From Nocardioides sp. (GTDB taxonomy: Bacteria; Actinomycetota; Actinomycetes; Propionibacteriales; Nocardioidaceae): a DNA stretch of 57,509 nt. The notes beneath the pieces were generated by a model. That model was not told where the DNA came from and searched no databases. It saw only the letters and a list, made by a program, of their open reading frames with translations. The DNA is taken from the NCBI GenBank assembly GCA_035710425.1, contig DASTDJ010000196.1, positions 1 through 57,509 of the forward strand. Reading direction: 5' to 3'. Shown here piece by piece: positions 2,005 through 49,244 of this stretch. Position numbers and translations under genes: made by a program. Position 1 is the first letter of the stretch; the number at the start of each line of letters is the position of its first letter.

Positions 2005-5000
2005 GTGTCAACGACGACGCAGGATGTGGACAAGACCCAGCTCATCGAGAAGGCCACCGTGCTGGCCAAGCACGGACGCGGCACCGGCGGCCCGCCCCAT
2101 GACCAGGTCGACGCCCTCCTCCACGCCTACTACCGGCACGTCGCCCCCGAGGACATCGTCGGCCGCTCCGACGTCGATGTGTACGGCGCCCTCGCGTCGC
2201 ACTACAAGCTGGCGCTCGACCGCCCGCAGGGCACCGCGCAGGTGCGCGCGTTCACGCCCACGCTGGCCGAGCACGGCTGGTCGGCGAGCGGCCACTCCAT
2301 CGTCCAGGTGGTCGTCGACGACATGCCCTTCCTCGTCGACTCGCTGACGATGGAGCTGTCCCGGCAGCTGCGCGGGGTGCACGCGGTGATCCACCCGAAC
2401 TTCGACGTGGTCCGCGACGTCACCGGCGCTCTGCAGACCGTCCACCCGGTCGAGGACGGTGCGAGCCTGCCCGAGGGCGAGGCGGTCCGCGAGTCGTGGA
2501 TGCACGTCGAGATCGACCGGATCCGCGAGGGCGACGACCCCGCGGAGATCGTCGACCACGTCCAGCGGGTGCTCCGCGACGTGCGCGAGGCGGTCGAGGA
2601 CTGGGACAAGATGCAGGCCCAGGTCGCCGCCGTCGTCGCCGGCCTCAAGAGCGACCCGCCGCCGCTCGACCCCGAAGAGGTGCGCCAGGCGGGTGAGCTG
2701 CTGGAGTGGCTCGCCGACGAGCACTACACGTTCCTCGGCTACCGCGAGTACAAGCTCGAGCGCGAGGGCGACGACGACTACCTGCGCGCCATCCCCGGCA
2801 CCGGTCTCGGCATCCTGCGCTCCGACCAGGAGATGTCGGAGTCGTTCGGCCGGCTCCCCGAGCCGGTCAAGGCCAAGGCCCGCGAGAAGACCCTGCTCGT
2901 GCTCGCGAAGGCCAACTCGCGCGCCACCGTGCACCGGCCGGCCTACCTCGACTACGTCGGCGTGAAGACGTTCGACGAGTCGGGCGAGGTCACGGGCGAG
3001 CGCCGGTTCCTCGGCCTGCTGTCCAGCGCGGCCTACACGGAGTCGCTGCTGCGCATCCCGCTGGTGAAGGAGAAGGCGCAGGCGGTCCTCAAGCGCAGCG
3101 GGTTCGACCCCCGCAGCCACGCCGGCAAGGCGCTGATGGACACCCTGGAGACCTACCCCCGCGACGAGCTGCTGCACACGCCGGTCGACGAGCTGGTGCC
3201 GATGGCCGAGGCCGCGATGCACGCGCGGGAGCGCCGCGCCGTACGCATGTTCATCCGCAAGGACACCTACGGCCGCTACGTGTCGGTGCTCGTCTACCTG
3301 CCCCGCGACCGCTACAACACCGGTGTCCGCGAGAAGTTCGCACAGCTGCTCCAGCAGCGGCTCGGGGCGGAGTCGGTCGAGTTCAACGTCAGCATCGGCG
3401 AGTCCACGACCGCGCGGGTCCACTTCGTCGTCCACCTGCCCAAGGGCGAGGCGCTGCCCGACATCGACATCCCCGACCTCGAGCGCCGGCTGGCCGAGGC
3501 CTCCCGCTCGTGGCACGACGACTTCACCGCCGCCGTGATCGCGGAGTACGGCGAGGAGACGGGCGGCACGCTCAGTCGCCGCTACCTCGACTCGTTCCCG
3601 GAGGCCTACAAGGAGGACTTCTCCCCGCGTACGGCGGCCGTCGACCTCGGCCGGCTCGAGGCGATCGAGGGCGACGAGGGCATCGACCACTCCCTCTACC
3701 AGGACCTCGACGCGGCCAGCGGCGAGGCGCGGCTGAAGCTCTTCCGGATCGGCCCGCCGCTGTCGCTCTCGGAGATCCTGCCGACGCTCTCGTCGATGGG
3801 GGTCGAGGTCGTCGACGAGCGGCCCTACGTGCTGGACGGACTGGAGCGTCCCTCGCACATCTACGAGTTCGGGCTGCACTACCAGGGCAGCCTCCCCGAG
3901 CACGGGCGAGAGCTTTTCCAGGACGCGATCCGCGCCGTGTGGGACGGCTACAACGAGATCGACGGGTTCAACGAGCTGGTGCTCGGCGCCCGGCTGACCT
4001 GGCGCCAGGCGACCCTGCTGCGCGCCTACGCGAAGTACCTCAAGCAGGGCAACTCGCCGTTCGCCCTCGACTACATCGAGGACGCCCTCTGCAACAACAC
4101 CGACATCACCCGGCTGCTGGTCCAGCTGTTCGAGGCGAGGTTCGACCCGACCGCGAACACCGCGGGTGACGACCCGGCCCGGGTCCAGCAGCTCACGACG
4201 CTCCAGGAGCGGATCGTGCTCGCCCTCGACGACGTGGCCAGCCTCGACCACGACAGGATCCTGCGGTCCTACCTCACGCTCATCAACGCGACCCTGCGCA
4301 CCAACTACTTCCAGCCGGACGCCGACGGCGGGCCGAAGACCTACATCTCCCTCAAGCTCGAGCCGTCCCAGATCCCGGAGCTGCCGGAGCCGCGGCCCCG
4401 GTTCGAGATCTTCGTCTACTCCCCGCGCGTCGAGGGCGTCCACCTCCGGTTCGGCGCGGTCGCGCGCGGCGGGCTGCGCTGGTCCGACCGCCGCGACGAC
4501 TTCCGCACCGAGATCCTCGGCCTGGTCAAGGCGCAGATGGTGAAGAACACCGTCATCGTGCCGGTGGGAGCGAAGGGCGGCTTCTTCTGCAAGCAGCTGC
4601 CCGACTCCTCCGACCGCGAGGCGTGGATGAACGAGGGCATCGCCTGCTACAAGACGTTCATCTCGGGCCTGCTCGACATCACCGACAACCTGGTCGAGTC
4701 CGCCTCGGTGCCGCCGCGCGACGTGGTCCGGCACGACGGTGACGACACCTACCTGGTGGTGGCGGCCGACAAGGGCACCGCGACGTTCTCCGACATCGCC
4801 AACGGCGTGGCGATCGACTACGGCTTCTGGCTCGGCGACGCGTTCGCCAGCGGCGGCTCGGTCGGTTACGACCACAAGGCGATGGGCATCACCGCCCGCG
4901 GCGCCTGGGTGGCGGTGCAGCGGCACTTCCGCGAGATGGGCCTCGACTGCCAGACCGAGGACTTCACCTGCGTCGGCATCGGCGACATGTCCGGCGACGT

Positions 5001-6870
5001 GTTCGGCAACGGCATGCTGTGCTCCGAGCACACCCGCCTGGTCGCCGCGTTCGACCACCGCGACATCTTCATCGACCCCTCGCCCGACCCGGAGACGTCG
5101 TACGCCGAGCGCCGGCGGCTGTTCGAGCTGCCGCGGTCGAGCTGGCAGGACTACGACGCCTCGCTGATCTCCGAGGGCGGCGGGGTGTTCCCGCGTTCGC
5201 AGAAGTCGATCAAGCTGAACGACCAGATCCGGCGGGCGCTGGGCATCGAGGCGTCGGTGGAGGCGATGACGCCCGCCGAGCTGATGAAGTCAATCCTGCT
5301 CGCGCCGGTCGACCTGCTGTGGAACGGCGGCATCGGCACCTACGTGAAGGCCGCCCACGAGAGCCACGGCGACGCGGGCGACAAGGCCAACGACGCGATC
5401 CGCGTCAACGGCGGCGACGTACGCGCGAAGTGCGTGGGCGAGGGCGGCAACCTCGGGCTCACCCAGGCGGGCCGGATCGAGTACGCCCTCGAGGGCGGCC
5501 GGATCAACACCGACTTCATCGACAACTCCGCCGGAGTCGACACCTCCGACCACGAGGTCAACATCAAGATCCTGCTCGACCGGGTGGTCCGCGACGGCGA
5601 CCTCACCGAGAAGCAGCGCAACCAGGTGCTCGCGACGATGACCGACGAGGTCGCCCACCTCGTGCTCCGCGACAACTACGAGCAGAACCTCTCGTTGGCC
5701 AACGGCGCCGCCAACGCTCCCGGGCTGCTGCACGTGCACGAGTTCTGGATCAAGAAGCTCGAGTCCGACGACACCCTCAACCGCGAGCTCGAGGGGCTGC
5801 CGTCGAGCCGGGTGGTCCGGCAGCGCCTGGAGCGCAACGAGGGCCTGACCGTCCCCGAGCTGTCGGTGCTGATGGCCTGGACCAAGATCGTGCTGGCCGA
5901 CGAGCTGCTCGAGTCGGACCTGCCCGACGACCCCTACCTCGACCTTGACCTGCGGGCCTACTTCCCGACCGAGATCCGCGAGGGCTTCGCCGAGCGGATC
6001 ACCGACCACCCGCTGCGGCGGCAGATCATCGTGACCCAGGTGGTCAACGACCTGGTCAACGGCGCCGGGCTCACGTTCTGGCCGCGGCTGGCGGGGGAGA
6101 CCGGGGCGACCCCGGCCGAGCTGACCCGAGCCAACTTCGTCGCGCGCGAGATCTTCGGCTCGTTGCCGCTGCGTCAGGAGCTCGAGAAGTACGACAACAA
6201 GCTCGACGCCGGCGTCCAGACCCACATGCGCCTCGAGATGCGCACCCTCGTCGAGCGGGCCTCGCGGTGGCTGATCAACAACCGCCGCCCGCCGCTCGAC
6301 AGCCAGGGCACGGTCGACACGTTCGCGGGGCCGGTCCAGGCGGCGATGGGCGCGCTGCCCGACCTGATGACCGGGCGCGAGCTCGCGGCGTACGAACGTC
6401 GCCGCGACGCGCTGATGAAGCGCGACGTGCCGGAGGATCTCGCCGGCCTGGTGGCGACGTTCCCGCCGGCGTACATGCTGCTCAACGTCATCGAGATCGC
6501 GCAGCGCGAGTCGCTGGAGCCCGACGACGTCGCGCGGGTGCACTTCGCGCTCGGCGAGCGGCTCGGGCTGCCGGTCCTGGTGCAGCGGATCCTCGGGCTG
6601 CCGCGTGAGGACCGGTGGCAGACCATGGCACGGGCCGCGCTGCGCGACGACCTCCACTCGGTGCACGCGCAGCTCACCTCGCAGGTGCTCCTCACGACCG
6701 ACCCCGAAAAGCCCGCCCCCGCGCGGATCGCGGAGTGGGAGGAGGAGGACGCGGTCATCGTCGAGCGCGCCACCGAGACGATGGGCGAGATCTGCGCCGA
6801 CGAGGCCGCCGACCTGGCTCGGATGTCGGTGGGCCTCCGCGTCGTCCGCGGGCTGCTGCGGACGGGATGA
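2005..6870 (+). CDS. gdh: Large NAD-specific glutamate dehydrogenase
   Basis: 1621 aa; ARGGLRWSDR, GLVKAQMVKN, AADKGTATFSD, GDMSGDVFGNG, GEGGNLG. Confidence 0.95.
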   Translation: MSTTTQDVDKTQLIEKATVLAKHGRGTGGPPHDQVDALLHAYYRHVAPEDIVGRSDVDVYGALASHYKLALDRPQGTAQVRAFTPTLAEHGWSASGHSIVQVVVDDMPFLVDSLTMELSRQLRGVHAVIHPNFDVVRDVTGALQTVHPVEDGASLPEGEAVRESWMHVEIDRIREGDDPAEIVDHVQRVLRDVREAVEDWDKMQAQVAAVVAGLKSDPPPLDPEEVRQAGELLEWLADEHYTFLGYREYKLEREGDDDYLRAIPGTGLGILRSDQEMSESFGRLPEPVKAKAREKTLLVLAKANSRATVHRPAYLDYVGVKTFDESGEVTGERRFLGLLSSAAYTESLLRIPLVKEKAQAVLKRSGFDPRSHAGKALMDTLETYPRDELLHTPVDELVPMAEAAMHARERRAVRMFIRKDTYGRYVSVLVYLPRDRYNTGVREKFAQLLQQRLGAESVEFNVSIGESTTARVHFVVHLPKGEALPDIDIPDLERRLAEASRSWHDDFTAAVIAEYGEETGGTLSRRYLDSFPEAYKEDFSPRTAAVDLGRLEAIEGDEGIDHSLYQDLDAASGEARLKLFRIGPPLSLSEILPTLSSMGVEVVDERPYVLDGLERPSHIYEFGLHYQGSLPEHGRELFQDAIRAVWDGYNEIDGFNELVLGARLTWRQATLLRAYAKYLKQGNSPFALDYIEDALCNNTDITRLLVQLFEARFDPTANTAGDDPARVQQLTTLQERIVLALDDVASLDHDRILRSYLTLINATLRTNYFQPDADGGPKTYISLKLEPSQIPELPEPRPRFEIFVYSPRVEGVHLRFGAVARGGLRWSDRRDDFRTEILGLVKAQMVKNTVIVPVGAKGGFFCKQLPDSSDREAWMNEGIACYKTFISGLLDITDNLVESASVPPRDVVRHDGDDTYLVVAADKGTATFSDIANGVAIDYGFWLGDAFASGGSVGYDHKAMGITARGAWVAVQRHFREMGLDCQTEDFTCVGIGDMSGDVFGNGMLCSEHTRLVAAFDHRDIFIDPSPDPETSYAERRRLFELPRSSWQDYDASLISEGGGVFPRSQKSIKLNDQIRRALGIEASVEAMTPAELMKSILLAPVDLLWNGGIGTYVKAAHESHGDAGDKANDAIRVNGGDVRAKCVGEGGNLGLTQAGRIEYALEGGRINTDFIDNSAGVDTSDHEVNIKILLDRVVRDGDLTEKQRNQVLATMTDEVAHLVLRDNYEQNLSLANGAANAPGLLHVHEFWIKKLESDDTLNRELEGLPSSRVVRQRLERNEGLTVPELSVLMAWTKIVLADELLESDLPDDPYLDLDLRAYFPTEIREGFAERITDHPLRRQIIVTQVVNDLVNGAGLTFWPRLAGETGATPAELTRANFVAREIFGSLPLRQELEKYDNKLDAGVQTHMRLEMRTLVERASRWLINNRRPPLDSQGTVDTFAGPVQAAMGALPDLMTGRELAAYERRRDALMKRDVPEDLAGLVATFPPAYMLLNVIEIAQRESLEPDDVARVHFALGERLGLPVLVQRILGLPREDRWQTMARAALRDDLHSVHAQLTSQVLLTTDPEKPAPARIAEWEEEDAVIVERATETMGEICADEAADLARMSVGLRVVRGLLRTG

Positions 6871-13873: not shown

Positions 13874-15844
13874 GTGCACGCGGTCGAGATCAGCACGATC
13901 CTGGTCGAGCTGGCAGTCATCATCGTCCTGGCCCGCACCATGGGCTGGCTGTTCACCAAGGTGGGCCAACCCGCGGTGGTCGGTGAGATCACCGCCGGCA
14001 TCCTGCTGGGTCCCAGCATCCTCGGCATGGAGCTCAGCAACGAGCTCTTCCCGATCGACACGCGCCCGTACCTCGGGGTGCTGGCCAGCCTCGGTCTGGT
14101 GCTCTTCATGTTCGTGGTCGGCCTCGAGCTGGACACGTCGCTGATCAAGGGCAACGGACGGGTCGCCGGATCCGTCTCGATCGCCTCGATCCTGCTGCCG
14201 TTCACCCTCGGCTTCGGGCTCTCCGCGATCCTCCAGGACGAGCACCAGCAGGGTGACGACTTCTTACCGTTCGCGCTGTTCATAGGCGCAGCCATGTCCG
14301 TGACAGCCTTCCCGGTGCTGGCGAGGATCCTCACCGACCGCAAGATGCATCGCACCGAGACCGGCGGCATCGCCCTGGCGTGCGCCGCGACCGACGACAT
14401 CCTGGCCTGGACCCTGCTCGCCGTGGTGATCGCGATCGGCGGCGGTCAGGGCGAGGAGAACCAGTGGCTGGTCTTCCTCGCCGTCCCCTTCGCGCTGGTC
14501 GCGCTGCTGGTGATCCGGCCCCAGCTCACCCGCCTCACCACGGCGTACGAGAAGGCGGGCCGGTTGACCCCGGGCATCATGAGCGTGGTCCTCGTCGGGC
14601 TGCTGCTGTTCGCCGCGGTGACCGAGCTGCTCCACGTCCACTACATCTTCGGCGCGTTCCTGTTCGGGGCGATTCTCCCCCACGAGGGTGCGGCGGCGAT
14701 GCGCCACGAGATCCTGATCCGGCTCGAGCAGATCTCGGTCCTGCTCCTGCTCCCGGTCTTCTTCCTGCTGTCCGGCCTCAACGTCAACCTCCGGGGGTTG
14801 TCGGGCGAGAACCTCGTGCAGCTGGCGATGATCCTGGCGGTGGCGATCGGTGGAAAGTACATCGGTGCCTACCTGGGTGCCCGCTCCGCCGGCGTACCCC
14901 ACTGGCAGTCGAACTCGCTCGGCATCCTGATGAACACCCGCGGCCTGACCGAGCTGGTCATCCTCAACGTCGGTCGGGACCTGGGGCTGATCGGTGACAC
15001 GCTCTTCACGATGATGGTGGTGATGGCTCTGGTCACCACCCTGATGACCGGTCCACTGCTCACCCGCGCCTATCCGAAGCGACGGGTCGAGCGCGACATC
15101 GCCGACGCCGAACGCGCGGCGCTCGGCGACACGGCGACCACCAGAGTGCTCGTCGTGGCCAGGCCCGAGACGGACAGCTCTGCCCTGGTCGAGGTCGCGT
15201 TCGGGCTGCTGGGGGCCACGCAGCCCGCGGAGGTCGTCGTCGCCGCCCTGGAGCCGCAGAAGGAGCGGCTCGAGCTGGGCGGCGGGCTCACCGACGAGCT
15301 CGCCGAGATGGCGGAGACCATGGAGCGTCAGCAGGTGCTGGTCAAGGCCGGCGAGGACGTCGGCATCCCTGTGCGGATCATGGCCAACCCGAGCAACGAC
15401 CTGACCGGAGACCTGGTGGTGCTCGCCGGTGCGGTCGCTCCGCAGTACCTCGTCGTCTGGGCGGACGATCCCACGGCACCGGAGGTGATCGGAGCCACCG
15501 ACTCGCCGGTCGTCCAGGTCGAGCCGGGCACCGTGATCGCCGGCTCCATCGCCGTCGACTGGCGGCCGGACAACGACGGCGACGCCGCGGTCGTGGTCGC
15601 CTGCCGGCTGGCCGGACGCACCGGGGCTGCTCTGGAGCTGCGCTCCGAGTCCGACAACCGGCGCTTCCAGGGCATGCGCGAGGCGCTGGCTGCGCGCGGC
15701 GTGGATCTCTCCGAGGCCGGCGAGGGTGCGCTCGTGGTCAGCAGCGCCGACGGCCAGGGACACCTCCGGGTGCGCGCGCAGCTCGACGCCACCCCGGTCG
15801 AGTGGGCGACCGCGGACCTCGGCACCGTCACGTTGGTCGAGTAG
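13874..15844 (+). CDS. CPA2 cation:proton antiporter with C-terminal soluble domain
   Basis: GQPAVVGEI, FVVGLE, SVTAFPVLARIL, TDD, LMNTRGLTELV. Start at GTG 13874 after AGAGGGG. Confidence 0.88.
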   Translation: MHAVEISTILVELAVIIVLARTMGWLFTKVGQPAVVGEITAGILLGPSILGMELSNELFPIDTRPYLGVLASLGLVLFMFVVGLELDTSLIKGNGRVAGSVSIASILLPFTLGFGLSAILQDEHQQGDDFLPFALFIGAAMSVTAFPVLARILTDRKMHRTETGGIALACAATDDILAWTLLAVVIAIGGGQGEENQWLVFLAVPFALVALLVIRPQLTRLTTAYEKAGRLTPGIMSVVLVGLLLFAAVTELLHVHYIFGAFLFGAILPHEGAAAMRHEILIRLEQISVLLLLPVFFLLSGLNVNLRGLSGENLVQLAMILAVAIGGKYIGAYLGARSAGVPHWQSNSLGILMNTRGLTELVILNVGRDLGLIGDTLFTMMVVMALVTTLMTGPLLTRAYPKRRVERDIADAERAALGDTATTRVLVVARPETDSSALVEVAFGLLGATQPAEVVVAALEPQKERLELGGGLTDELAEMAETMERQQVLVKAGEDVGIPVRIMANPSNDLTGDLVVLAGAVAPQYLVVWADDPTAPEVIGATDSPVVQVEPGTVIAGSIAVDWRPDNDGDAAVVVACRLAGRTGAALELRSESDNRRFQGMREALAARGVDLSEAGEGALVVSSADGQGHLRVRAQLDATPVEWATADLGTVTLVE

Positions 15845-15919: not shown

Positions 15920-17221
15920 CTACTGGCCGGCGTGGGTGTTGAACGCCAGAGTGCGGTGGCCGATCCGGACCCGCGTGCCCTGGGTGAGCACGTGCTCGCC
16001 GCCCGAGGGCAGCCGGTGCCAGTCAGCCGTCTTGGGCGGGTTGACGAAGGTGCCGTTGGTCGACTGGTTGTCGATCAGCACGGGGTCCCAGCCGCGTAGC
16101 TCGATCCGGGCGTGCACCCGCGAGATCTGGTTGGACTGGTCCTGGACCGGGATGCCGCGCACGGCCTCGCTGCGCACCCGCTCGTCGGACGCGGGGTCGC
16201 GCCCGAGCAGGTAGTCGGAGTCGAGCTGGAAGACCGACCCGTCGTCGAGCACGATCACACCGAGTGGCGGCCGGGTGCCGTTCACCAGCACCGGGGTCTG
16301 CTGGACCATGTTGATGCCGCACACGGCGCAGAACAGCTGGCGCGGGTCGTTGAAGTGGCGGTTCTTGCAGTAGACCCCGCGCACCTCCTCCACCTGCACG
16401 GCCGGGTCGGCGACCTGGGAGACGTCCTTGACCTCCGAGACGATCGGCAGCGGCTGCGGTGCGTCCTCCTGGACGTCGCTCAGCAGGATCGAGTCGAAGT
16501 GGCCCGTGTCGTCCTCCGGCATCGCCGGCGTGGGGCGATCGGGCACGGGTGCGGGGGCCGCGGCCACCGGCTCCGGGGCCGGCGGGGGCGGGGCAGGGGT
16601 CGGGGCCGGGGGCGGCGGAGGCGGTGGGGCAGCCTGCACGGGCTCGGCCGGCGTGGGCGGTACGGCCGCGTGCTTGGCCTCCGGCTGCGGTGGCGCTTCG
16701 ACGGCCATCACCGGTACGTCGTGCGCGTGCGCGCCGGAGATCGCGAACCCGCCGGCGGGCACCACGCCGTCGGTCAGCCGGTAGAGACCGCCGGAGACAC
16801 TTGCGGACGGGTCGACGCTGGCCTCGAGCTGGTGGATCGGCCACGGCACCAGCCGCTCCACCCACGCGAGCGAGTCGGCGCCCGAGATGCGTTCACCGTT
16901 GACCATCACCGAGGCCGTGTCGCCCTGCAGGAAGACCGCCAGGCCGGTGTCGTGCGGAGCCATCGCCACGAACGACGGGTGGTCCTCGGTCGACGTGGAG
17001 AGCTGCAGCGCGAAGCCGCGTACCAGCTGTCGACCCTGTCCTCCGTTGGCGGCGACCAGCTCGGCCTGCTCGAGGAGCGGGTGGACCCGCGCCGGGTCCT
17101 GCGAGCCGACGAGAAGGACGACGCGACCACGGCGGGCCAGCGTGCCGGCACCCGGTCCCGGGGTGAGGTCGGCACCGTCCCAGGCGTCCGCGGAGTCGAC
17201 GGGATGGATGTGCGGGTCCAT
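15920..17221 (-). CDS. Zn-ribbon + FHA domain protein, 433 aa
   Basis: ATG 17221 overlaps the upstream TGA. Pro-rich linker; CKNRH...CAVCG; FHA motifs LGR, SRVH, STNGTFVN. Confidence 0.85.
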   Translation of the reverse strand: MDPHIHPVDSADAWDGADLTPGPGAGTLARRGRVVLLVGSQDPARVHPLLEQAELVAANGGQGRQLVRGFALQLSTSTEDHPSFVAMAPHDTGLAVFLQGDTASVMVNGERISGADSLAWVERLVPWPIHQLEASVDPSASVSGGLYRLTDGVVPAGGFAISGAHAHDVPVMAVEAPPQPEAKHAAVPPTPAEPVQAAPPPPPPPAPTPAPPPPAPEPVAAAPAPVPDRPTPAMPEDDTGHFDSILLSDVQEDAPQPLPIVSEVKDVSQVADPAVQVEEVRGVYCKNRHFNDPRQLFCAVCGINMVQQTPVLVNGTRPPLGVIVLDDGSVFQLDSDYLLGRDPASDERVRSEAVRGIPVQDQSNQISRVHARIELRGWDPVLIDNQSTNGTFVNPPKTADWHRLPSGGEHVLTQGTRVRIGHRTLAFNTHAGQ

Positions 17222-17646
17222 CAGATGATCCTTCCACCGAAGAAGCGCCAACGGATGAGCGGCACCCGCATCGGCCCGTTGACCCAGAGCCAGATCACGA
17301 CCCAGATCACCATGAAGTCGATCACGAAGGTGGAGAACGGCACCTCTCCGTCGATGCCGGGGATCGCCTCGAGCTCCAGCAGCAACCAGACCAGGGCTCC
17401 CTCGTTGACGCAGGTGATGAAGCCGAACAGCGTCGGCCAGTCCTTCTCCCACCGGAACTGCTGGATCAGGTGGTAGATGATCTCCCAGATCACGCCGAGC
17501 ACGGCCACCGTGGCCAGGATGATGTACGTCGTCTTGTAGTCCGGGTCGTTCGGCAGGATCGGCGTGATCAGCAGCGTGATCAGCGCGCCCCAGGTGGCCA
17601 GCATGAAGATGCGGGTCTGGATCCGCCCGTTCAGTGTGGGGAGCAT
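17221..17646 (-). CDS. Small integral membrane hypothetical protein, 141 aa
   Basis: About 4 hydrophobic segments; GAAGG RBS; coupled to the downstream FHA gene. Confidence 0.8.
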   Translation of the reverse strand: MLPTLNGRIQTRIFMLATWGALITLLITPILPNDPDYKTTYIILATVAVLGVIWEIIYHLIQQFRWEKDWPTLFGFITCVNEGALVWLLLELEAIPGIDGEVPFSTFVIDFMVIWVVIWLWVNGPMRVPLIRWRFFGGRII

Positions 17647-19239: not shown

Positions 19240-19320
19240 GGGAGCCTTCCCTTCCGTAGCCGGGCTGCCCGGCACGCTACACCGGGAACGGCCTCCCCGG
19301 CGCTCTCTTCACGAGGATGC

Positions 19321-19352
19321 TGACGGGAACCGATTCGGTTCGGTTCCCGTCA
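19321..19352. promoter_or_regulatory. Palindromic bidirectional ECF-sigma-like promoter (GGAAC-N17-CGTCA on both strands)
   Basis: TGACGGGAACCGA-N6-TCGGTTCCCGTCA, a perfect 13-bp inverted repeat between divergent genes. Confidence 0.6.
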
Positions 19353-19397
19353 TCTCGTGGCATGCTGAGCGACGTCCATCCGAGTCGAGGAGGGCCC

Positions 19398-20195
19398 GTG
19401 CAAGGGATCGCCGACTACCAGTTCATCCGCGCGTTGGGTGAGTCCAACTACGGGACCAACTACCTCGCCACCCCGCCGGCTCGCCTGGGCATCGCCGACT
19501 CCCAGGTCGTCGTGAAGGTGATCGCCGGACCCACCTCCGATGACGCGTTCCGTCGCGCCACCCGCGAGCTGAAGCACTTCAGCGTGGCCGACTCCGACCG
19601 GCTGGTGAAGGTCTTCGACGCGGGTCGCCACGGCGGCGCCTTCTACTACGCGATGGAGTACCTCCCGCTCGGCTCGCTCGAGAGCCCGGCCGAGACGCTG
19701 GCCCCCGACCACGCCGTCCGCGCGGTGCGCGACGCCGCCCTGGCCGCGCACGCGCTGCACGAGCGCGGCATCGCCCACCGCGACATCAAGCCCGCCAACA
19801 TCCTGCTCGCCGACGACGGCGGTCGCCTCTCCGACCTCGGCCTATCGCAGCTGCTCACGCCCGGGATCGTGGTCACCGGGCTCGGCCAGATCGGGCTGGA
19901 GTTCACCGACCCGCAGATCATGGTCGGCGCCGCCGCTTCGCGGGCCAGCGACATCTGGTCCCTCGGTGCCTGCCTGCACTACGCGATGACCGGCGTCGGG
20001 GTCTACGGCGACCTGAAGTCCACGGAGCCCTTGATGCTGGTGCGCACCATCCTGGCCTCGACGCCGGCGGTCAACCCCGGCCTGCCGCCGGACGCCGGCC
20101 AGCTGATCGCCGCCTGCCTCGACCCCGAGCTCTCCGCCCGCCCGCGCACCGCCGCTGAGGTGGCCGACCGGATCGGCTCGCTGGTCACCGTGTGA
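19398..20195 (+). CDS. Stand-alone Hanks-type Ser/Thr protein kinase (atypical motifs), 265 aa
   Basis: GAGGAGG RBS before GTG 19398; VVVK, HRDIKPANILL, DLG, DIWSLG; no TM segment. Confidence 0.85.
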   Translation: MQGIADYQFIRALGESNYGTNYLATPPARLGIADSQVVVKVIAGPTSDDAFRRATRELKHFSVADSDRLVKVFDAGRHGGAFYYAMEYLPLGSLESPAETLAPDHAVRAVRDAALAAHALHERGIAHRDIKPANILLADDGGRLSDLGLSQLLTPGIVVTGLGQIGLEFTDPQIMVGAAASRASDIWSLGACLHYAMTGVGVYGDLKSTEPLMLVRTILASTPAVNPGLPPDAGQLIAACLDPELSARPRTAAEVADRIGSLVTV

Positions 20196-20225
20196 GCCGG
20201 GCGGTGGCGGGCCTGCGAATTCCGC

Positions 20226-20252
20226 GGAACCTCGCTCGTGGCCTGACCGTCT
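20226..20252 (+). promoter_or_regulatory. ECF-sigma-like promoter GGAAC-N17-CGTCT
   Basis: Same -35/-10 pattern and spacing as the 19321 element, 59 nt upstream of ATG 20311. Confidence 0.55.
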
Positions 20253-20310
20253 GACGTTACGATCAAGCGCCCTTGGATCCGCAGGGGCGACACCGGACTT
20301 GTGAGGACCC

Positions 20311-21870
20311 ATGGAGCTGCACGAAAACCTCTACGCCCTTGGCCTGCGCCTCGGCCGTGAGGTCTTCGACGACCCCGACAGCTTCCGCGGTGCGCTGGAC
20401 GACTTCCTCGACGAGGACTCCGCCACCACGGGCGACATCAACCTGCTCGTCGACGCGGTGCGTCTGGGCGCGTTCGCGTCGATGACCTCGATGATCGGCA
20501 GTGGTGCGCAGGTGACCGCCGCTGTCGAGGAGGCCGGCAGCCGGCTGGCGCGTGACCGCGGCAGCGCGGACGTGGCGGGCGCCCAGTGGGCGTGCGCGGT
20601 CCTCGGGTTCGCCATCGGCAAGGTCAGCGACGCCGAGGTGCGTCGCTACCGCACCCAGCACGCGACCCCCCAGCCGCCGTCGCAACCGCTGCCGCCGACC
20701 CAGTTCCCGGGCCAGCAGCCTCCGCAGGGCGTGCCTCCGACGCAGCGTCCCGGCGCACCGGTGCCGGGCGGGCAGCCCACCGCCACCGGACCCCTGCCCA
20801 CCGCCCAGCCCCTCTACGGCGGCCAGCCGGGCTCCGGCGGCGTCCCGTCGCCTCCGGTCAACGTGCCGCCGCCCTCGTCCTGGCCCCCCGCGCCGGCCCA
20901 TCAGCAGCCCCGCAAGCGCAAGACCTGGCCGATCCTGGTCGCCGTCGTCGCCGTGCTCGCGATCGTCGGCGGCGGCGCGTTCGCGGTGATCGCCCTCCAG
21001 GGCGACGACGACGACAACGGCGGCGGCGGAGGTGGCGGCGGCAAGCAGGAGACGGAGCAGGCCGTCGACCTCGAGTCCGTGACCGAGCGCTACAGCGACC
21101 TCGCCGGCAACGTCGGCGCGGGCCTCGACGAGTGCGAGGGGGTCGAGGCGAGCGACGGCACCAGCGAGGAGCTGGAGTGCGGCTTCGCCAACGGCACGCT
21201 CGCGCTGACGACGTACGAGTCGATGGAGGACCTCACGGCCAGCCGCGAGGCCAACACCGGCACCGACGCCGGCACCCGCTACAGCGAGACCGACCAGGGC
21301 GTCATCTACGGCATCAACAACGGGTCCGCCGTCTCCGAGGCCGAGGTCGCCTCGATCTACTGGGACAGCAACGAGGGCCTGCAGTCCGGCAAGTTCACCG
21401 CGTCGTCCGACACCGTCACCATCGACCAGCTGGTCGAGACCCTGAACGGCGTCGAGCCCGTGGTTGCCTGGCCGACCGAACCCGAGGACGAGGGCATGCT
21501 CGAGCTCGCCGCGGAGTTCGTGAACGTCGAGGAGTGCGACCGGATCGACACGATCCAGGCCGGCGAGCTCGAGGAGAGCATCTGCAGCGCCCCCGACGGC
21601 ATCACCGTGTTCATGGGGGTGTTCGAGACCATGAGCGACTTCAAGGAGTACCGGCGCGACGCGCTGCAGCAGGGCAGCGACCAGGGCAACCCGCTGCGCA
21701 ACTGGAACTTCGACGGCAACACCCGCGAGGGCGCGGCGGCGGAGTACCTCAACTCCTCCGACGATGCCGTCCGCTACTGGGACAAGCCCGAGTGCCGGTG
21801 CTACATGGAGGCCAGCCTCACCGGCAGCAGCGACCTCCAGAAGCTCGAGGACTGGTGGGTCAACGCCTGA
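20311..21870 (+). CDS. Single-pass membrane protein: N-terminal helical domain, Pro-rich linker, duplicated Cys-containing extracellular domain
   Basis: 519 aa; RKRK followed by TM WPILVAVVAVLAIVGGGAFAVIAL; acidic extracellular region. Confidence 0.8.
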   Translation: MELHENLYALGLRLGREVFDDPDSFRGALDDFLDEDSATTGDINLLVDAVRLGAFASMTSMIGSGAQVTAAVEEAGSRLARDRGSADVAGAQWACAVLGFAIGKVSDAEVRRYRTQHATPQPPSQPLPPTQFPGQQPPQGVPPTQRPGAPVPGGQPTATGPLPTAQPLYGGQPGSGGVPSPPVNVPPPSSWPPAPAHQQPRKRKTWPILVAVVAVLAIVGGGAFAVIALQGDDDDNGGGGGGGGKQETEQAVDLESVTERYSDLAGNVGAGLDECEGVEASDGTSEELECGFANGTLALTTYESMEDLTASREANTGTDAGTRYSETDQGVIYGINNGSAVSEAEVASIYWDSNEGLQSGKFTASSDTVTIDQLVETLNGVEPVVAWPTEPEDEGMLELAAEFVNVEECDRIDTIQAGELEESICSAPDGITVFMGVFETMSDFKEYRRDALQQGSDQGNPLRNWNFDGNTREGAAAEYLNSSDDAVRYWDKPECRCYMEASLTGSSDLQKLEDWWVNA

Positions 21871-21925: not shown

Positions 21926-22740
21926 TAGACGGTTGCCGGCGTGCGTCCCGGGAGGTCGGTGCGGGTGAGGATCGCCAGCGTGGTGTCGTCGCCGCCCACC
22001 TGAGCCGGCTCGACGAGCCAGCCCGGGAGCTGCTCGGCCACCCAACCCAGCCCGTGCTGACGGCCGAACCGCACCAGCTCCTCGCCGGTCTGCTGCCACC
22101 AGCCGGAGGCGTCGACGCGCGACGACCCGAAGCCGTCGGTGCACTGGAACGCCAGTACGACGTCGCCCTGCAGGGTGTCGATCGCGCCGGCCCGCAGTGA
22201 CTTGAGCGGGTTGGGCTGGCACAGCGAGGCGGTGGTGACGCCGTCGGCGTCGGGGTCCTCGGGGAGCGGGCGGGACGCGCGGCCGGCGCCGTCGACCACG
22301 ACCGTGTCGCCGTCGCCGATCTGGAACAAAGTGAGCGAGTCGCCGACCGCGGCCATCGCCAGGATCGTGGTGCCGTAGGGCCGCAGCTGGTCACGCGGGG
22401 CGCCGCCCTGGAAGGGGTTCTCGGCCGCGTGCCGACGCACGCCGGCGGTCCACGCCTCCACGGCGTTGGCGGCGATCTCGAGCACCGTGCGCTGGGCGGT
22501 CGCAGCGTCGGCAAGGTCCGCCAGCCGCGCGACCAGGGCGTCGACCGCGCTGTCGACGGCGATCCGGGCGCCGACGTCGCTGCGGAAGTGCTCGTGGTGA
22601 CCGTGGCCGTCGGCGACCGCGACCACAGCGGTGTCGCCCTCGACCCAGGTGCGGACGGCGTCCTGGATGGGTCGCCCGTCACGCACGTGCACCGAGCCGA
22701 TCTGGGTGCCGGACAGGGGAGTCCAACCCCCCTGGCTCAT
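21925..22740 (-). CDS. PP2C-family protein phosphatase (TerY-P type)
   Basis: GSVH...PIQDA, AVADGHG, QIGDG, CTDG, GDDTT; ATGA-coupled to the vWA gene. Confidence 0.88.
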   Translation of the reverse strand: MSQGGWTPLSGTQIGSVHVRDGRPIQDAVRTWVEGDTAVVAVADGHGHHEHFRSDVGARIAVDSAVDALVARLADLADAATAQRTVLEIAANAVEAWTAGVRRHAAENPFQGGAPRDQLRPYGTTILAMAAVGDSLTLFQIGDGDTVVVDGAGRASRPLPEDPDADGVTTASLCQPNPLKSLRAGAIDTLQGDVVLAFQCTDGFGSSRVDASGWWQQTGEELVRFGRQHGLGWVAEQLPGWLVEPAQVGGDDTTLAILTRTDLPGRTPATV

Positions 22741-23435
22741 CCGAGCGTGCTCCAGATCGGGTCGCCGACGGGGGAAGGCGGAACGTTGGTGACGTTGGCG
22801 TCGCCGATGACGGGTCGGGAGGCCACGCGGCTGGCGGCCTTGGAGGCCCAGACGATGTATTCCACGAGCTGCTCGGGGTTGTCGGCGCGTAGCAGCGGCA
22901 CGTCCTCGTTGCCGATGAAGCGCCGCATCGAGTGCATGTCGGCGTCGCGGCCCACCCCGAGTGCCAGTCGTACGGCGGCGGCGCCCCATTTCTCGTTGAG
23001 CAGCTCCTGGAGGCCCTCGGCGAACGTCGTCCCGCTGCTGTGGGTCGGGCGGCCGTCGGAGACCAGGATGATCGCCGGCGGGTAGGCGCTCGGCAGCCGC
23101 TCCATCTCACGCATCGCGCCGGCCAGCGTGACCAGCGCGCTGCCGAGCTCGGTGAAGCCCTTCGGCACCGCCTCGAGCCGCTGCCAGTGCACGTCCTCCA
23201 CGGACGTCGGCTCCTCGATGATCCACTGCGGCTCGTTGGCGAACGCCAGCACCCGGATCAGCAGCTCCGCGTGGGGGTTGGCCCGGGCCTCGTCGCGCAG
23301 GTGCGGCAGCACCTCCGTGATGGCGTTGTTGAGCGCCTGGATCCGGCCGCCTCGCAGCATCGAACCGGAGACGTCGAGGACGAAGATGAAGTGGAGTGGC
23401 TTGCGCGCCAGGGCTCCACCCAGGCGGTCGCTCAT
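22737..23435 (-). CDS. terY: TerY-like vWA domain protein
   Basis: MIDAS DVSGS, GFTELG, ILVSDG; GAGGTGG RBS before ATG 23435. Confidence 0.82.
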   Translation of the reverse strand: MSDRLGGALARKPLHFIFVLDVSGSMLRGGRIQALNNAITEVLPHLRDEARANPHAELLIRVLAFANEPQWIIEEPTSVEDVHWQRLEAVPKGFTELGSALVTLAGAMREMERLPSAYPPAIILVSDGRPTHSSGTTFAEGLQELLNEKWGAAAVRLALGVGRDADMHSMRRFIGNEDVPLLRADNPEQLVEYIVWASKAASRVASRPVIGDANVTNVPPSPVGDPIWSTLG

Positions 23436-23562
23436 TTCCACCTCGCTTCGCGTTGCGGTCTGGCTTGAAGTTATACCCTGACACCACTTCGGTCCGATGT
23501 CTCGGGATCCGGATCGTCATGGTGGTAGTCCAAGCTCGCGTCCCTGGAGGTCGGCGTCCTCG

Positions 23563-24864
23563 ATGGTATTGGCCAACGGAACCGAGGTTGATCTCGGCGC
23601 GCTGGGGCGCGCTCGAGTGGTCTCGTTGATCGGCCAGGGCGGGCAGGGCTACGTCTACGAGGTGGAGCGTCCGTTGGGCGAGCCGCTCGCGCTGAAGTGG
23701 TACAAGAAGGAGAGCGCGAGCGTCGAGCAGCACGACGAGATGCAGCAGCTCGTCGAGTTCGGCTCCCCGCACGCCCGGTTCCTGTGGCCGATGAGCATGG
23801 CGCGGGTGACGGGCGAGCCGGGGTTCGGCTACGTCATGCAGCTGCGCGACCCGCGGTTCCTCGAGCTCAGCTACCTGCTCTCCAACTCCGACCGCGACGG
23901 CAACCCGCTCGACGTCTCCTTCGCCTCGACGATCGAGCTCTGCCGCCAGCTGAGCTTCAGCTTCCTGCGGTTGCACGCCCGCGGCCTCTGCTATCGCGAC
24001 ATCTCCTTCGGCAACGTGTTCTTCGACCCCTCCAACGGCAACGTGCTGATCTGCGACAACGACAACGTCGGTGTCGACAACGGTCGCGGCCGGGTCCTCG
24101 GCACGCCGTACTTCATGGCGCCGGAGGTGGTGAAGGACACGACGTTCCGCACCATGCCCAACACCGACACCGACCGGCACTCGCTGGCCGTGCTGCTGTT
24201 CTGCTCACTCTTCCTGGGCCACCCGCTCGAGGGTCAGCGCACCGACGCCGGTCTGCGCGACGCCCAGTGGCTGCTCACCCACTTCGGCACCGACCCGGTG
24301 TTCTGCATGCATCCCGAGAACGAGTCCAACCGACCCGGTGACATCGTCCAGCAGTACTGGCGCATCTACCCGCGGTTCCTGCGCGACCTGTTCATCCAGG
24401 CCTTCGTGACCGGCATCGACCGGCCCGGCGCCCGGGTCACCGAGGGCCAGTGGATCAAGGCGATGGACCGGCTCCGCGACGGCATGGTCTCGTGCAGCAC
24501 CTGCAGCACCACCAACTTCTGGGACCCGGCCGACCCCAACACCACCTGCCGGTCGTGCGCGTCCCCGCTCGCACCGCCGTTCCTGCTGCAGGTCGGCCGA
24601 CGCAACCTCGCGGTCAGCTCGCTCGCCACGCTGCGCTCTGACCACCTGGCCTCCGGCGTCGACGAGCCGACCACGCTCGGCCGGACCCGGCAGCACCCGC
24701 AGGCCCCGGAGCGCTGGGGGCTGCACAACACCTCGGAGTTCCCCTGGCAGGTCGCCTACCCGGGGGGCCACCACCACGTGCTCGAGCCCAACCAGACCAT
24801 CGAGATGGTCGACGGCGCCCGGATCCAGATCCAGTCGGCGACCGTCGTCGTACGCCGCCCCTGA
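23563..24864 (+). CDS. TerY-P-type Ser/Thr kinase with Zn-ribbon and FHA-like tail
   Basis: GQGGQG, ALK, YRDISFGN, DND, GTPYFMAPE; CSTC...CRSC. Start at 23563 or 23497. Confidence 0.85.
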   Translation: MVLANGTEVDLGALGRARVVSLIGQGGQGYVYEVERPLGEPLALKWYKKESASVEQHDEMQQLVEFGSPHARFLWPMSMARVTGEPGFGYVMQLRDPRFLELSYLLSNSDRDGNPLDVSFASTIELCRQLSFSFLRLHARGLCYRDISFGNVFFDPSNGNVLICDNDNVGVDNGRGRVLGTPYFMAPEVVKDTTFRTMPNTDTDRHSLAVLLFCSLFLGHPLEGQRTDAGLRDAQWLLTHFGTDPVFCMHPENESNRPGDIVQQYWRIYPRFLRDLFIQAFVTGIDRPGARVTEGQWIKAMDRLRDGMVSCSTCSTTNFWDPADPNTTCRSCASPLAPPFLLQVGRRNLAVSSLATLRSDHLASGVDEPTTLGRTRQHPQAPERWGLHNTSEFPWQVAYPGGHHHVLEPNQTIEMVDGARIQIQSATVVVRRP

Positions 24865-24915: not shown

Positions 24916-26604
24916 ATGCAGTCGCTGCTGATCGAGGTGGACGGACGAGCCCTGCGGTTCGACGCACCCCGCCTCCTCCGCATCGGCCGGTCGATCGAGG
25001 CCGACGTGGTCCTCGCCGCCGGCTCGGTGTCGCGACAGCACGCAGAGCTGCGGCCGGTCGAGACCGGCTGGGTGCTGGTCGACTCGGGCAGCCAGTACGG
25101 CACCTACGTCGACGGGCGACGGGTCACCGAGCACATGATCAGCGGCCCGGTCACCGTGCAGTGCGGTCCTCCGGCGGCGGGATCCACCCTGCGGATCACC
25201 CCCGACCCGGTCGCCTCCGCCCCGGCGCCCGCACCCGTGCAGGCACCGATGCCGGTGCCCGTGCCCGCATCTCCGTCCGGACCGATCCCGAGCGCGCCGC
25301 CGTCCCCCACCGACCGGCCCCAGGGACAGACCCCGCCGGGCGGCGGGTACGACGAGACGTTCGTCCTCGCGGCCCAGCCGCCCGGGCCTCCTGGCATGGG
25401 CCCGCCGCGCAGCGGACCCGACCTGCTGGTCGTGGCCGAGGGGCGGGAGTTCCGGTTCCGGCACCCCGCCCACCTGACCATCGGCCGCCGTCCGGAGTCC
25501 GATGTCGTCGTCACCGACCCGGTCTGCTCGCGGATGCACGGCCAGGTCACGGCGACGCCGGGCGGCTGGACCTACCTGAACAGCTCGCAGGAGGGCACCT
25601 TCCTCAACGGCCGCCGGGTCGAGCAGTTCCCGTTCAACGAGAGCGTGAGGTTCCGGCTCGGCCATCCCGTCGCCGGTCCCGAGCTCGCCCTCGTCCCGAT
25701 CCTGTCCGCCGCCGAGGAGGAGCGGCGGTTCGCGCGCAAGCGCCGCAACCGGACCCTCGTGCGCGTGGGCGCCGGGGTGGCGGCGTTGATCCTGATCGGC
25801 GGCACGATCACCGCGGCGGTGCTGCTCAGCGGCAGCGATGACGACGACCCGAGCGGTGGCGGCAGCGGCGGCGATTCCGGCAGCTCCTCCGACACCATGG
25901 AGGTGCTCACCGACGAGGAGCTCGACACCGCCAAGGCGGCGACCGTGCGCCTCTCGGCCGAGACGACCGACCTGTCCGGAGCGCCGGTGGAGTACTCCGG
26001 GTCCGGCTCGATCATCGACGAGCAGGGGCTGATCCTCACCAACGCGCACGTGGCCGCGCCCCAGGCCGAGGGCCTCGCGGAGCAGTACGGCGAGGAGGAC
26101 CAGATCAACGACCCCGAGTACCTCCTGGTCGCCCTCACCCAGGGCGGCGACGACCGGCCGGCCGATCCCGAGTACCGCGCTCGAGTCGTGGAGGCCGACG
26201 GACACCTCGATGCCGCGGTGATCGAGATCTACGCCGACGAGGACGGCAACGAGCTCGACGACGAGCTCGACCTCCCGACGCTGCCGATCGGCGACTCCGA
26301 CGAGGTCCGGACCGGTGACGACGTCACGGTGCTGGGCTTCCCCGGCATCTCCCAGTCCGGCGCGGTCACGGTGACGAAGGGCGTCGTGTCGACGTTCATC
26401 CCCTCGGAGGAGTACGGCCCGCGCTCGGAGATCGACACCGACACCCGGATCGCGCCGGGCAACTCCGGCGGGTCGGCGATCAACAACGATGCCGAGATCA
26501 TCGGCATCCCCTCCGCCTTCTTCAGCGAGGGCACGCCGATCGTGAGCGGGCGGATCCGGCCGATCAACCTGGTGACCGACCTGATCAGCTCTGCGGGTGG
26601 ATGA
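24916..26604 (+). CDS. FHA-FHA-TM-trypsin-like serine protease
   Basis: Two FHA domains (GR...SRxH...GT), one TM, protease triad TNAHV / LDAA / GNSGG; no PDZ. Confidence 0.88.
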   Translation: MQSLLIEVDGRALRFDAPRLLRIGRSIEADVVLAAGSVSRQHAELRPVETGWVLVDSGSQYGTYVDGRRVTEHMISGPVTVQCGPPAAGSTLRITPDPVASAPAPAPVQAPMPVPVPASPSGPIPSAPPSPTDRPQGQTPPGGGYDETFVLAAQPPGPPGMGPPRSGPDLLVVAEGREFRFRHPAHLTIGRRPESDVVVTDPVCSRMHGQVTATPGGWTYLNSSQEGTFLNGRRVEQFPFNESVRFRLGHPVAGPELALVPILSAAEEERRFARKRRNRTLVRVGAGVAALILIGGTITAAVLLSGSDDDDPSGGGSGGDSGSSSDTMEVLTDEELDTAKAATVRLSAETTDLSGAPVEYSGSGSIIDEQGLILTNAHVAAPQAEGLAEQYGEEDQINDPEYLLVALTQGGDDRPADPEYRARVVEADGHLDAAVIEIYADEDGNELDDELDLPTLPIGDSDEVRTGDDVTVLGFPGISQSGAVTVTKGVVSTFIPSEEYGPRSEIDTDTRIAPGNSGGSAINNDAEIIGIPSAFFSEGTPIVSGRIRPINLVTDLISSAGG

Positions 26605-48501: not shown

Positions 48502-49244
48502 TGAGCGTCTTGACTCCGGGTGTCCGACCTATGGCTGAGGTTCGAGTCCTGCGCGGCCCGAACCCGATCCGTGTTGTGGTGGTGGCGCACCACGCGCTCG
48601 TCGGCGACGCCGTCCGGATGGCACTGTCCAGCCGGGGGATCGTCGCCACCGGCGCATCGCTGGGCCGGGGCAGCCAACGCGAGCTGGTCGCGCTCGCCCG
48701 GGTCGTCGACAGCGTCCGGCCGGCGCTCGGCCTGGTGCTCTGCGACGTCGATGACCCCGTCCAGCTGCGCGAGACGGTCCTGCTGGCCCGGCACGTGCCG
48801 GTCCGCTGGCTCCTGCTGACCAGCTCGCAGGACGACAGCCGGTGGGGCGCGGCCGTCGAGGCCGGCGTCCACAGCGTGGTGCCGATGTCGGAGGGCATCG
48901 ACGTGGTCGCCCACACCGTTCGCGTGATCGCCCGGGGCCGTGAGGGCCTGACCCCGGACACCCGGGCGCGGGTGCTCCAGGCCTGGCGGCGTGCGGGCCG
49001 GGAGCACCGACAGCTCGTGGAGCGGTTCGGTGGGCTGACGCCGCGGGAGATGAAGGTGCTGAGCCTGCTGGCCGACGGGCTGACGGTGAAGCAGATCGCC
49101 GATCGCTCGGAGGTCGCCGAAGGCACCGTCCGCAGCCAGGTCAAGTCGGTGCTGCGCAAGCTCGGCGTCAACTCACAGCTCGCCGCGGTGGCCGCGCACC
49201 GGCGGGTGGTCACCCAGGGAGCGCCGTTCCGCCAGCGGCCCTGA
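48501..49244 (+). CDS. NarL/LuxR-family regulator with atypical receiver
   Basis: LTPREMKVL...TVRSQVKSVLRKL HTH; receiver lacks the acidic pair and conserved Lys. Confidence 0.85.
   Translation: MSVLTPGVRPMAEVRVLRGPNPIRVVVVAHHALVGDAVRMALSSRGIVATGASLGRGSQRELVALARVVDSVRPALGLVLCDVDDPVQLRETVLLARHVPVRWLLLTSSQDDSRWGAAVEAGVHSVVPMSEGIDVVAHTVRVIARGREGLTPDTRARVLQAWRRAGREHRQLVERFGGLTPREMKVLSLLADGLTVKQIADRSEVAEGTVRSQVKSVLRKLGVNSQLAAVAAHRRVVTQGAPFRQRP

Follow-up and report, generated by a model that had tools for sequence, protein, structure and literature searches.

A perfect palindrome as a candidate two-way ECF sigma factor promoter in a kinase/flavoprotein spacer of Nocardioides

The gene cluster and the palindrome

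The window considered here, that is, the whole stretch of 57,509 nucleotides of Nocardioides sp. DNA that was analyzed, harbors a kinase/phosphatase cluster whose genes are arranged as follows:

15920..17221, minus strand: FHA-domain protein (PF00498)
17221..17646, minus strand: hydrophobic protein, 141 aa
17656..19239, minus strand: flavoprotein-like protein, 527 aa (the family name is a lead only)
19398..20195, plus strand: Ser/Thr kinase, 265 aa, kinase domain only (PF00069), with the ribosome-binding site GAGGAGG before its start
20311..21870, plus strand: Pro-rich protein with a hydrophobic segment, 519 aa
21925-22740, minus strand: PP2C gene (PF13672)
22737-23441, minus strand: vWA gene (PF13519)
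23560-24864, plus strand: kinase 2 (start from ortholog alignments)
24916-26604, plus strand: FHA-trypsin-like protease

The spacer between the kinase and the flavoprotein-like gene parts a minus-strand operon, encoding the 527-aa, 141-aa, and FHA-domain proteins, from the plus-strand kinase and 519-aa genes. Judged by ribosome-binding sites and ortholog alignments, the most likely start codons are GTG 19398 for the kinase and ATG 23560 for kinase 2. Searches with the 527-aa protein gave no match in Pfam, NCBIfam, or the PDB sequences, and its flavoprotein label, a lead only, comes from its language-model (Atlas) neighbors, which are lysine/ornithine N-monooxygenases (score 0.97). Profile searches with the 519-aa Pro-rich protein likewise returned no family match, and a metagenome scan with the kinase as query gave a best match of 49% identity and no close relatives.

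Relatives of the 527-aa protein are encoded in 349 stretches, of which the best 80 were taken, and the named relatives, at 74-80% identity, belong mostly to Nocardioides. Altogether 83 related loci were examined, and 51 of them share the divergent kinase/flavoprotein arrangement. The closer loci keep the gene order of the cluster, whereas L087-L117 have it rearranged; despite these order changes, the kinase and the flavoprotein-TM-FHA trio have a Na+/H+ antiporter gene (13874-15844 in the window) linked to them at most loci, L087-L117 among them. Two local peculiarities may be recorded here, namely a tandem pair of 519-aa gene paralogs in L048 (4849-8010) and an extra stretch of approximately 1.7 kb between the 519-aa gene and PP2C in L038 and L039 (about 4600-6400).

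The feature on which this study centers is a perfect inverted repeat in the kinase/flavoprotein spacer, composed of TGACGGGAACCGA (19321-19333), 6 nt, and TCGGTTCCCGTCA (19340-19352). A preliminary description of this DNA had pointed out that the repeat reads GGAAC-N17-CGTCA on both strands, with a third copy, GGAAC-N17-CGTCT, before the gene at 20311 and a weaker site at 23505-23530; the letters bear out each of these readings, and the GGAAC-N17-CGTC matches lie at 19326-19351 (plus), 19347-19322 (minus), and 20226-20251 (plus), the third being 900 bp from the palindrome. The elements, with start sites predicted for the first three candidates, are:

19321..19352: perfect inverted repeat, 13-bp arms, 6-nt center, with an imperfect outer extension to about 19310/19359
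19326..19354, plus strand: candidate ECF promoter toward the kinase; -35 GGAAC(CG) at 19326-19330, -10 CGTC at 19348-19351 (CGTCATC); predicted start 19359-19361
19319..19347, minus strand: candidate ECF promoter toward the flavoprotein-like operon; -35 at 19347-19343, -10 at 19325-19322 (CGTCAGC); predicted start 19314-19312
20226..20254, plus strand: third ECF site, GGAACC-N16-CGTCTGA, ahead of the 519-aa gene; predicted start 20259-20261
23505..23530, plus strand: weak site, GGATC-N17-AGTC

In a perfect inverted repeat a match on one strand entails a match on the other; the two half-sites of the palindrome therefore do not add up to two pieces of evidence, and the chance level has to be judged for the repeat as a whole. 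Within the window there are nine matches to GGAAC-N16-18-CGTC where 3.8 are expected, a count reached in 2 of 100 shuffles. When artificial repeats with 13-bp arms were built from the non-coding DNA of the genome, 51 of 363,964 held the motif; as 64 perfect repeats of the genome have an arm of at least 13, about 0.01 motif-bearing repeats are expected for this motif alone, before allowing for other sigma motifs. The palindrome is not an artefact of assembly, since contigs from the sequencing runs X2, X7, X8, and X12 cover it and agree with the window at every base, showing no variants; of these runs, X12 may be near the source. The contigs of X9 and X11 ended short of the palindrome, and X10 gave none. 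An origin from REP elements finds no support, as the TGACCCGTCA...TGACGGGTCA repeats of the genome have the opposite arm order and 7 nt in common with the palindrome. Separately, the genome contains REP-like intergenic palindrome families, CTGACCCGTCA...TGACGGGTCAG and CTCGCACCTCAACCACC...GGTGGTTGAGGTGCG, on many contigs (e.g., C38:31089, C207:15498, and C324:3938).

ECF sigma factors and the local promoter consensus

The window itself contains no sigma gene, as the preliminary description had stated, its only PF08281 match (49008-49163) being a LuxR/GerE regulator. Elsewhere in the genome, contig C167 carries a SigM gene (14772-15455; NF007225 at 276.5 bits, cut-off 190) in a neighborhood of the ECF27 type, with an anti-sigma-position gene, trxB, and trxA, as given for this group in the supplement of PMC7826278. 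Members of the SigE family are also present, with at least five of the eight ECFs tested in the genome passing TIGR02983.

Genome-wide counts single out the spacer of 17 in GGAAC-N17-CGTC: 14 of its 86 matches are non-coding, compared with 3-12 at the remaining spacers in the range 12-22, and 12 of its matches have an ATG 7-10 nt downstream, compared with 0-7 at those spacers, counts that rest on crude in-house gene calls. The targets are mostly lipoprotein-like genes, and GGAAC-N17-CGTC is likely to be a real ECF promoter type in this genome and in the genus. Leaderless, mostly lipoprotein-like genes begin 7-9 nt past GGAAC-N17-CGTCnnA on contigs C23, C47, C76, C148, C171, C242, C267, and C294, and it is this spacing from which the starts of the two half-sites were predicted; a parallel set of GCAAC-N17/18-CGTC sites lies ahead of several SigE-family sigma genes. 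A leaderless start of the kinase at ATG 19362 finds no support, as this codon lies 10 nt past CGTC, where the others lie 7-9, and is out of frame in L039.

The sigM locus provides the sharpest view of the motif. SigM was found in 35 of the 41 genomes searched, and GGAAC-N17-CGTC stands at the sigM 3' end, upstream of the next gene, in 27 of the 30 loci returned, including all 22 from the genus, with the three misses all in one other family. All 27 sites have a spacing of 17, and all have a C after GGAAC and an A three bases past CGTC, neither of which had been searched for; in the window's genome this A occupies a third codon position and therefore points to constraint at the DNA level. The terminal A also recurs in 12 of the 19 upstream matches of the genome versus 4 of the 67 others, and because the C and the A are invariant in the sigM-linked sites and the A is enriched upstream, the local consensus can be written GGAACC-N16-CGTCnnA. 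The copy at the sigM end (G000:C167:14814-14839, minus strand, and likewise in L204-L233) lies upstream of the anti-sigma-position gene; this promoter-like site is likely to serve as a SigM-driven negative feedback promoter.

Measured against this consensus, the three sites of the window are not equivalent. GGAACC(G) as the -35 and CGTC at a 17-nt spacing are present at all three, and the third site matches the full local consensus (CGTCTGA), whereas both half-sites of the palindrome lack the terminal A of CGTCnnA and have C instead (CGTCATC and CGTCAGC). When a scoring matrix built from the sigM-linked sites was used to rank the 86 spacer-17 matches of the genome, the third site came 8th, the plus half-site 12th (12.5 bits), and the minus half-site 19th (9.9 bits). 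The sites upstream of the SigE-family genes themselves have the A in 1 of 5 cases, and one of them reads CGTCA. Since the half-sites of the palindrome are without the terminal A, a sigma factor reading it would more likely be a SigE-family (ECF39) paralog than SigM. For the palindrome, the likeness to a SigM-type motif drawn in the preliminary description holds for the -35, which matches that of M. abscessus, and for the presence of SigM in the genome, but not for the A found in 27 of 27 sigM-linked sites.

Conservation of the palindrome and of the neighboring boxes

The usual actinobacterial -10 element is TAnnnT, which was seen at 91% of the start sites of S. clavuligerus (PMC6614810). Boxes of the sigma-A type occur in the window at the following positions:

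19358..19366, plus strand: extended -10 for the kinase, TGG-CATGCT; predicted start about 19373
19274..19279, minus strand: -10 for the flavoprotein-like operon, TAGCGT; predicted start about 19267
20258..20263, plus strand: -10 TACGAT, overlapping the start region of the third ECF site; predicted start about 20270
23468..23479, both strands: symmetric back-to-back -10 pair AAGTTA/TACCCT, vWA (minus) and kinase 2 (plus)

Comparison across 50 distinct kinase/flavoprotein spacers (the 51 loci plus the window, less two duplicates) places TGnCAT[GC][CA]T ahead of the kinase in 45 of 50 (shuffle mean 0.24) and an exact TAGCGT ahead of the flavoprotein gene in 37 of 50 spacers (shuffle mean 1.5), the distance from TAGCGT to that gene being 35-55 nt in most cases. 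The palindrome contains the -35 region of the sigma-A-type promoter of the kinase. Six orthologs have the kinase start codon 6 nt past the -10 box, the distance that a leaderless start would have. Ahead of the 519-aa gene, 20 of the 54 related gene starts have TA[CG]GAT no more than 80 nt away, and the pattern A...TATA...T is shared by 41 of the 45 distinct spacers that separate vWA and kinase 2 (shuffle mean 0.19), in forms such as AGGCTA/TAGATT and AGGCTA/TACATT, among others, which makes 23468-23479 a good candidate for a conserved bidirectional sigma-A promoter of the cluster. In three 93%-identical relatives (L046, L047, and L048) the kinase/flavoprotein spacer has shrunk to 88-89 nt and contains ACGCTA-C-TACGAT, with opposite -10 boxes one base apart. 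Candidate regulator sites of other kinds appear in orthologous spacers (L032-L086) and not in the window: TG[GA]CA-N1-3-TG[AC]CA over the kinase -10 (20 of 50), GAATC (31 of 50), and a GCTAC direct repeat (21 of 50).

The ECF sites are distributed far more narrowly. The palindrome is present in 3 of the 50 orthologous spacers, namely those of the window and of L038 and L039 (96% protein identity), and is absent from the three 93%-identical relatives and from all the remaining spacers, one of which has a single unrelated match to the motif. The third site is found at 2 of 54 related gene starts, that of L038, where the spacer is much changed, and, as a separate copy, that of the more distant L049; it has been lost from L039 together with that spacer. 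The weak site at 23505-23530 was rejected as a promoter, as it occurs in 1 of 45 orthologous spacers (the window only) and chance would give a 120-nt spacer about 0.55 matches with two mismatches. Conservation in orthologous intergenic regions, which the preliminary description had named as a check, thus does not extend beyond a few loci for any of its sites. That description had taken the whole island, 23505 included, for one SigM-type regulon, a view in whose favor stand three good matches within 1 kb and the presence of SigM in the genome. However, what is conserved at all three spacers is sigma-A-type boxes rather than ECF sites, the palindrome is confined to 3 of 50, and 23505 is at chance level, so that a single ECF regulon is not supported, and we consider it highly improbable.

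Wider scans gave the same picture. The two-way pattern GACGGGAAC-N12-GTTCCCGTC occurs in 3 of 401 genus genomes, all of the same clade; among the 400 genus genomes other than the window's, the pattern is in G416 and G235, which have the 30-mers of L038 and L039 and are counted once here. Intergenic DNA of 400 other genomes of the class held no exact two-way pattern, and the one match there lies inside a long ORF; these genus and class scans covered the exact offset of the two promoters, and other offsets were scanned in the window's genome (G000) alone. Since it is confined to the window's genome and two close relatives, the palindrome is likely to be a recent addition, and it is likely an extra switch added to conserved, probably housekeeping-type promoters rather than the master control of the cluster.

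Within the three-genome clade, variable columns number 0 of 20 in the core of the palindrome, 3 of 12 in its center, and 30 of 136 outside it (some of these being alignment-end gaps). The third positions of the flavoprotein gene, of which 94 of 527 vary (about 18%, three-way), give a probability of about 0.02 for 0 of 20, and the difference between core and center has a Fisher p of 0.044. Core constraint is nevertheless suggestive only, because there are three sequences, the bins were set post hoc, and two other 22-nt blocks of the same spacer are equally invariant. The changes seen in the arms across the three sequences are one-sided, with no compensatory changes, and would fit a sequence read by protein rather than a stem; the transcripts predicted from the sigma-A starts would be without the repeat, because the palindrome lies upstream of both.

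These data bear on three further readings of the palindrome. It could be devoid of promoter activity and have been left behind neutrally by a template switch or an inverted duplication, which we consider unlikely: it is limited to one clade, continues on its outer sides as an imperfect repeat into the flanking ancestral promoter, belongs to a genome with 64 perfect repeats of such arm length, and has half-sites without the terminal A, but motif and spacing are exact and the core shows 0 of 20 changes despite about 18% neutral three-way divergence. Somewhat less probable still is an operator for a dimeric regulator, lying over the kinase sigma-A -35 and approximately 40 bp upstream of the flavoprotein -10 and controlling both. 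Its position between two conserved sigma-A-type boxes, its conserved arms and variable center, and the other conserved candidate sites that orthologs hold here (TG[GA]CA-N1-3-TG[AC]CA and GAATC, as above) would suit such an operator, whereas an operator has no need of arms that spell the local ECF -35 and -10 at the exact spacing (about 1e-4 per random repeat), no second full copy is found among the 36 GACGGGAAC and 4 GGAAC-N12-GTTCC matches listed, and the crude gene list places no dedicated regulator gene beside the cluster. GGAAC-N12-GTTCC was also considered as a separate operator family and rejected, its 4 copies in the genome being no more than the 0-5 found at other spacings.

The third reading would have a single orientation, most likely that toward the kinase, work as an ECF promoter, with the other as its passive mirror image. 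The plus site outscores the minus site (12.5 vs 9.9 bits), both plus-strand ECF sites overlap sigma-A boxes alike, and a mirror match follows automatically from the symmetry. On the other hand, the reverse -35 (GTTCC) within the plus spacer is unchanged in all three genomes, whereas a GGTTCC that the C227 site has in its spacer is altered in the apparent G235 counterpart of that site (orthology judged by eye), and we regard a one-way promoter as improbable.

A proposed mechanism and its relation to known systems

The interpretation we favor, tentatively and at somewhat below even confidence, is a recently gained two-way ECF sigma promoter laid over an older, likely sigma-A pair that serves the kinase and the flavoprotein-like operon. 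During normal growth, sigma-A transcription would run outward from about 19373 (plus) and 19267 (minus). Once a stress ECF sigma factor is free, its holoenzyme would settle on the 30-bp palindrome in either orientation, starting at about 19360 (plus) or 19313 (minus), and, because both orientations use the same base pairs, it would do so in one orientation at a time. Occupancy by the ECF holoenzyme on the plus strand would also block access to the sigma-A promoter, which lies about 13 bp further downstream, and the third site may act as a SigM-type input to the 519-aa gene in part of the clade. The perfect symmetry suggests that a short inverted duplication probably turned one promoter into two. 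A bolder version, in which a single 30-bp palindrome with nested -35 elements is read both ways by the same alternative sigma, each arriving polymerase picks either the kinase or the flavoprotein-FHA operon, and the whole was born recently by inverted duplication, is possible and more doubtful. Its switch-like outcome is not assured, because competition in the bidirectional promoters of E. coli is marked only at raised activity (PMC12825309).

If active, the palindrome would be a ready-made 30-bp bidirectional part and an example of two operons being drawn into a stress regulon by a single inversion. Because its distribution is narrow, little can be learned from it about the cluster's conserved function, and the more lasting results are the GGAACC-N16-CGTCnnA consensus, the promoter-like site inside the sigM end, and the conserved symmetric element of the sigma-A type in the vWA/kinase-2 spacer. 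Our search of the open-access literature, with subscription papers and bioRxiv supplements outside its scope, turned up no palindromic or superimposed pair of ECF promoters. The phyR/nepR loci of Alphaproteobacteria have closely spaced divergent EcfG promoters. Overlap of these two promoters finds no confirmation in the available portion of PMC7083833.

Among individual systems, the palindrome can be likened to the targets of mycobacterial SigM (ECF27), whose regulon in M. abscessus has the -35 GGAACCG (PMC13491425), a sequence matched on both strands of the palindrome, and the SigM of this genome shares the ECF27 gene context. It differs from them in that the sigM-linked sites of the Nocardioides type end in CGTCnnA and the half-sites do not, and in that the mycobacterial targets are ESX-4 substrates, whereas here they would be a kinase/phosphatase cluster. 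The sigma-E system of S. coelicolor (ECF39) offers a second parallel: GGAAC-N17-CGTC sites occur among its targets, as do lipoprotein genes (PMC6767563), and its sites overlap HrdB promoters, at which sigma-E can also repress (PMC10771440). The resemblance lies in the AAC and -10 TC core and in the overlap with an HrdB-type promoter, both plus-strand ECF sites of the window overlapping sigma-A-type boxes; the examples given for sigma-E, however, have mostly CGTCT or CGTCC as their -10, where the palindrome has CGTCA, and include no palindromic two-way site.

Bidirectional promoters as such are already known in bacteria, and a palindrome with nested ECF -35 elements would be at best a new variant of narrow range. 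The sigma-70 promoters of this kind described by Warman et al. share -10 elements and have starts 7-29 bp apart (bioRxiv 10.1101/2020.01.31.928960). The AAGTTA/TACCCT element at 23468-23479 fits this class by sequence, whereas the palindrome, though it would operate in a similar way, departs from its geometry, with -10 elements that do not overlap and predicted starts about 46-49 bp apart; it nests each -35 in the opposite spacer, and its sigma would be an ECF factor rather than sigma-70. If active, it would represent a minimal natural two-way promoter for an alternative sigma factor, with a geometry outside the described class of shared -10 elements.
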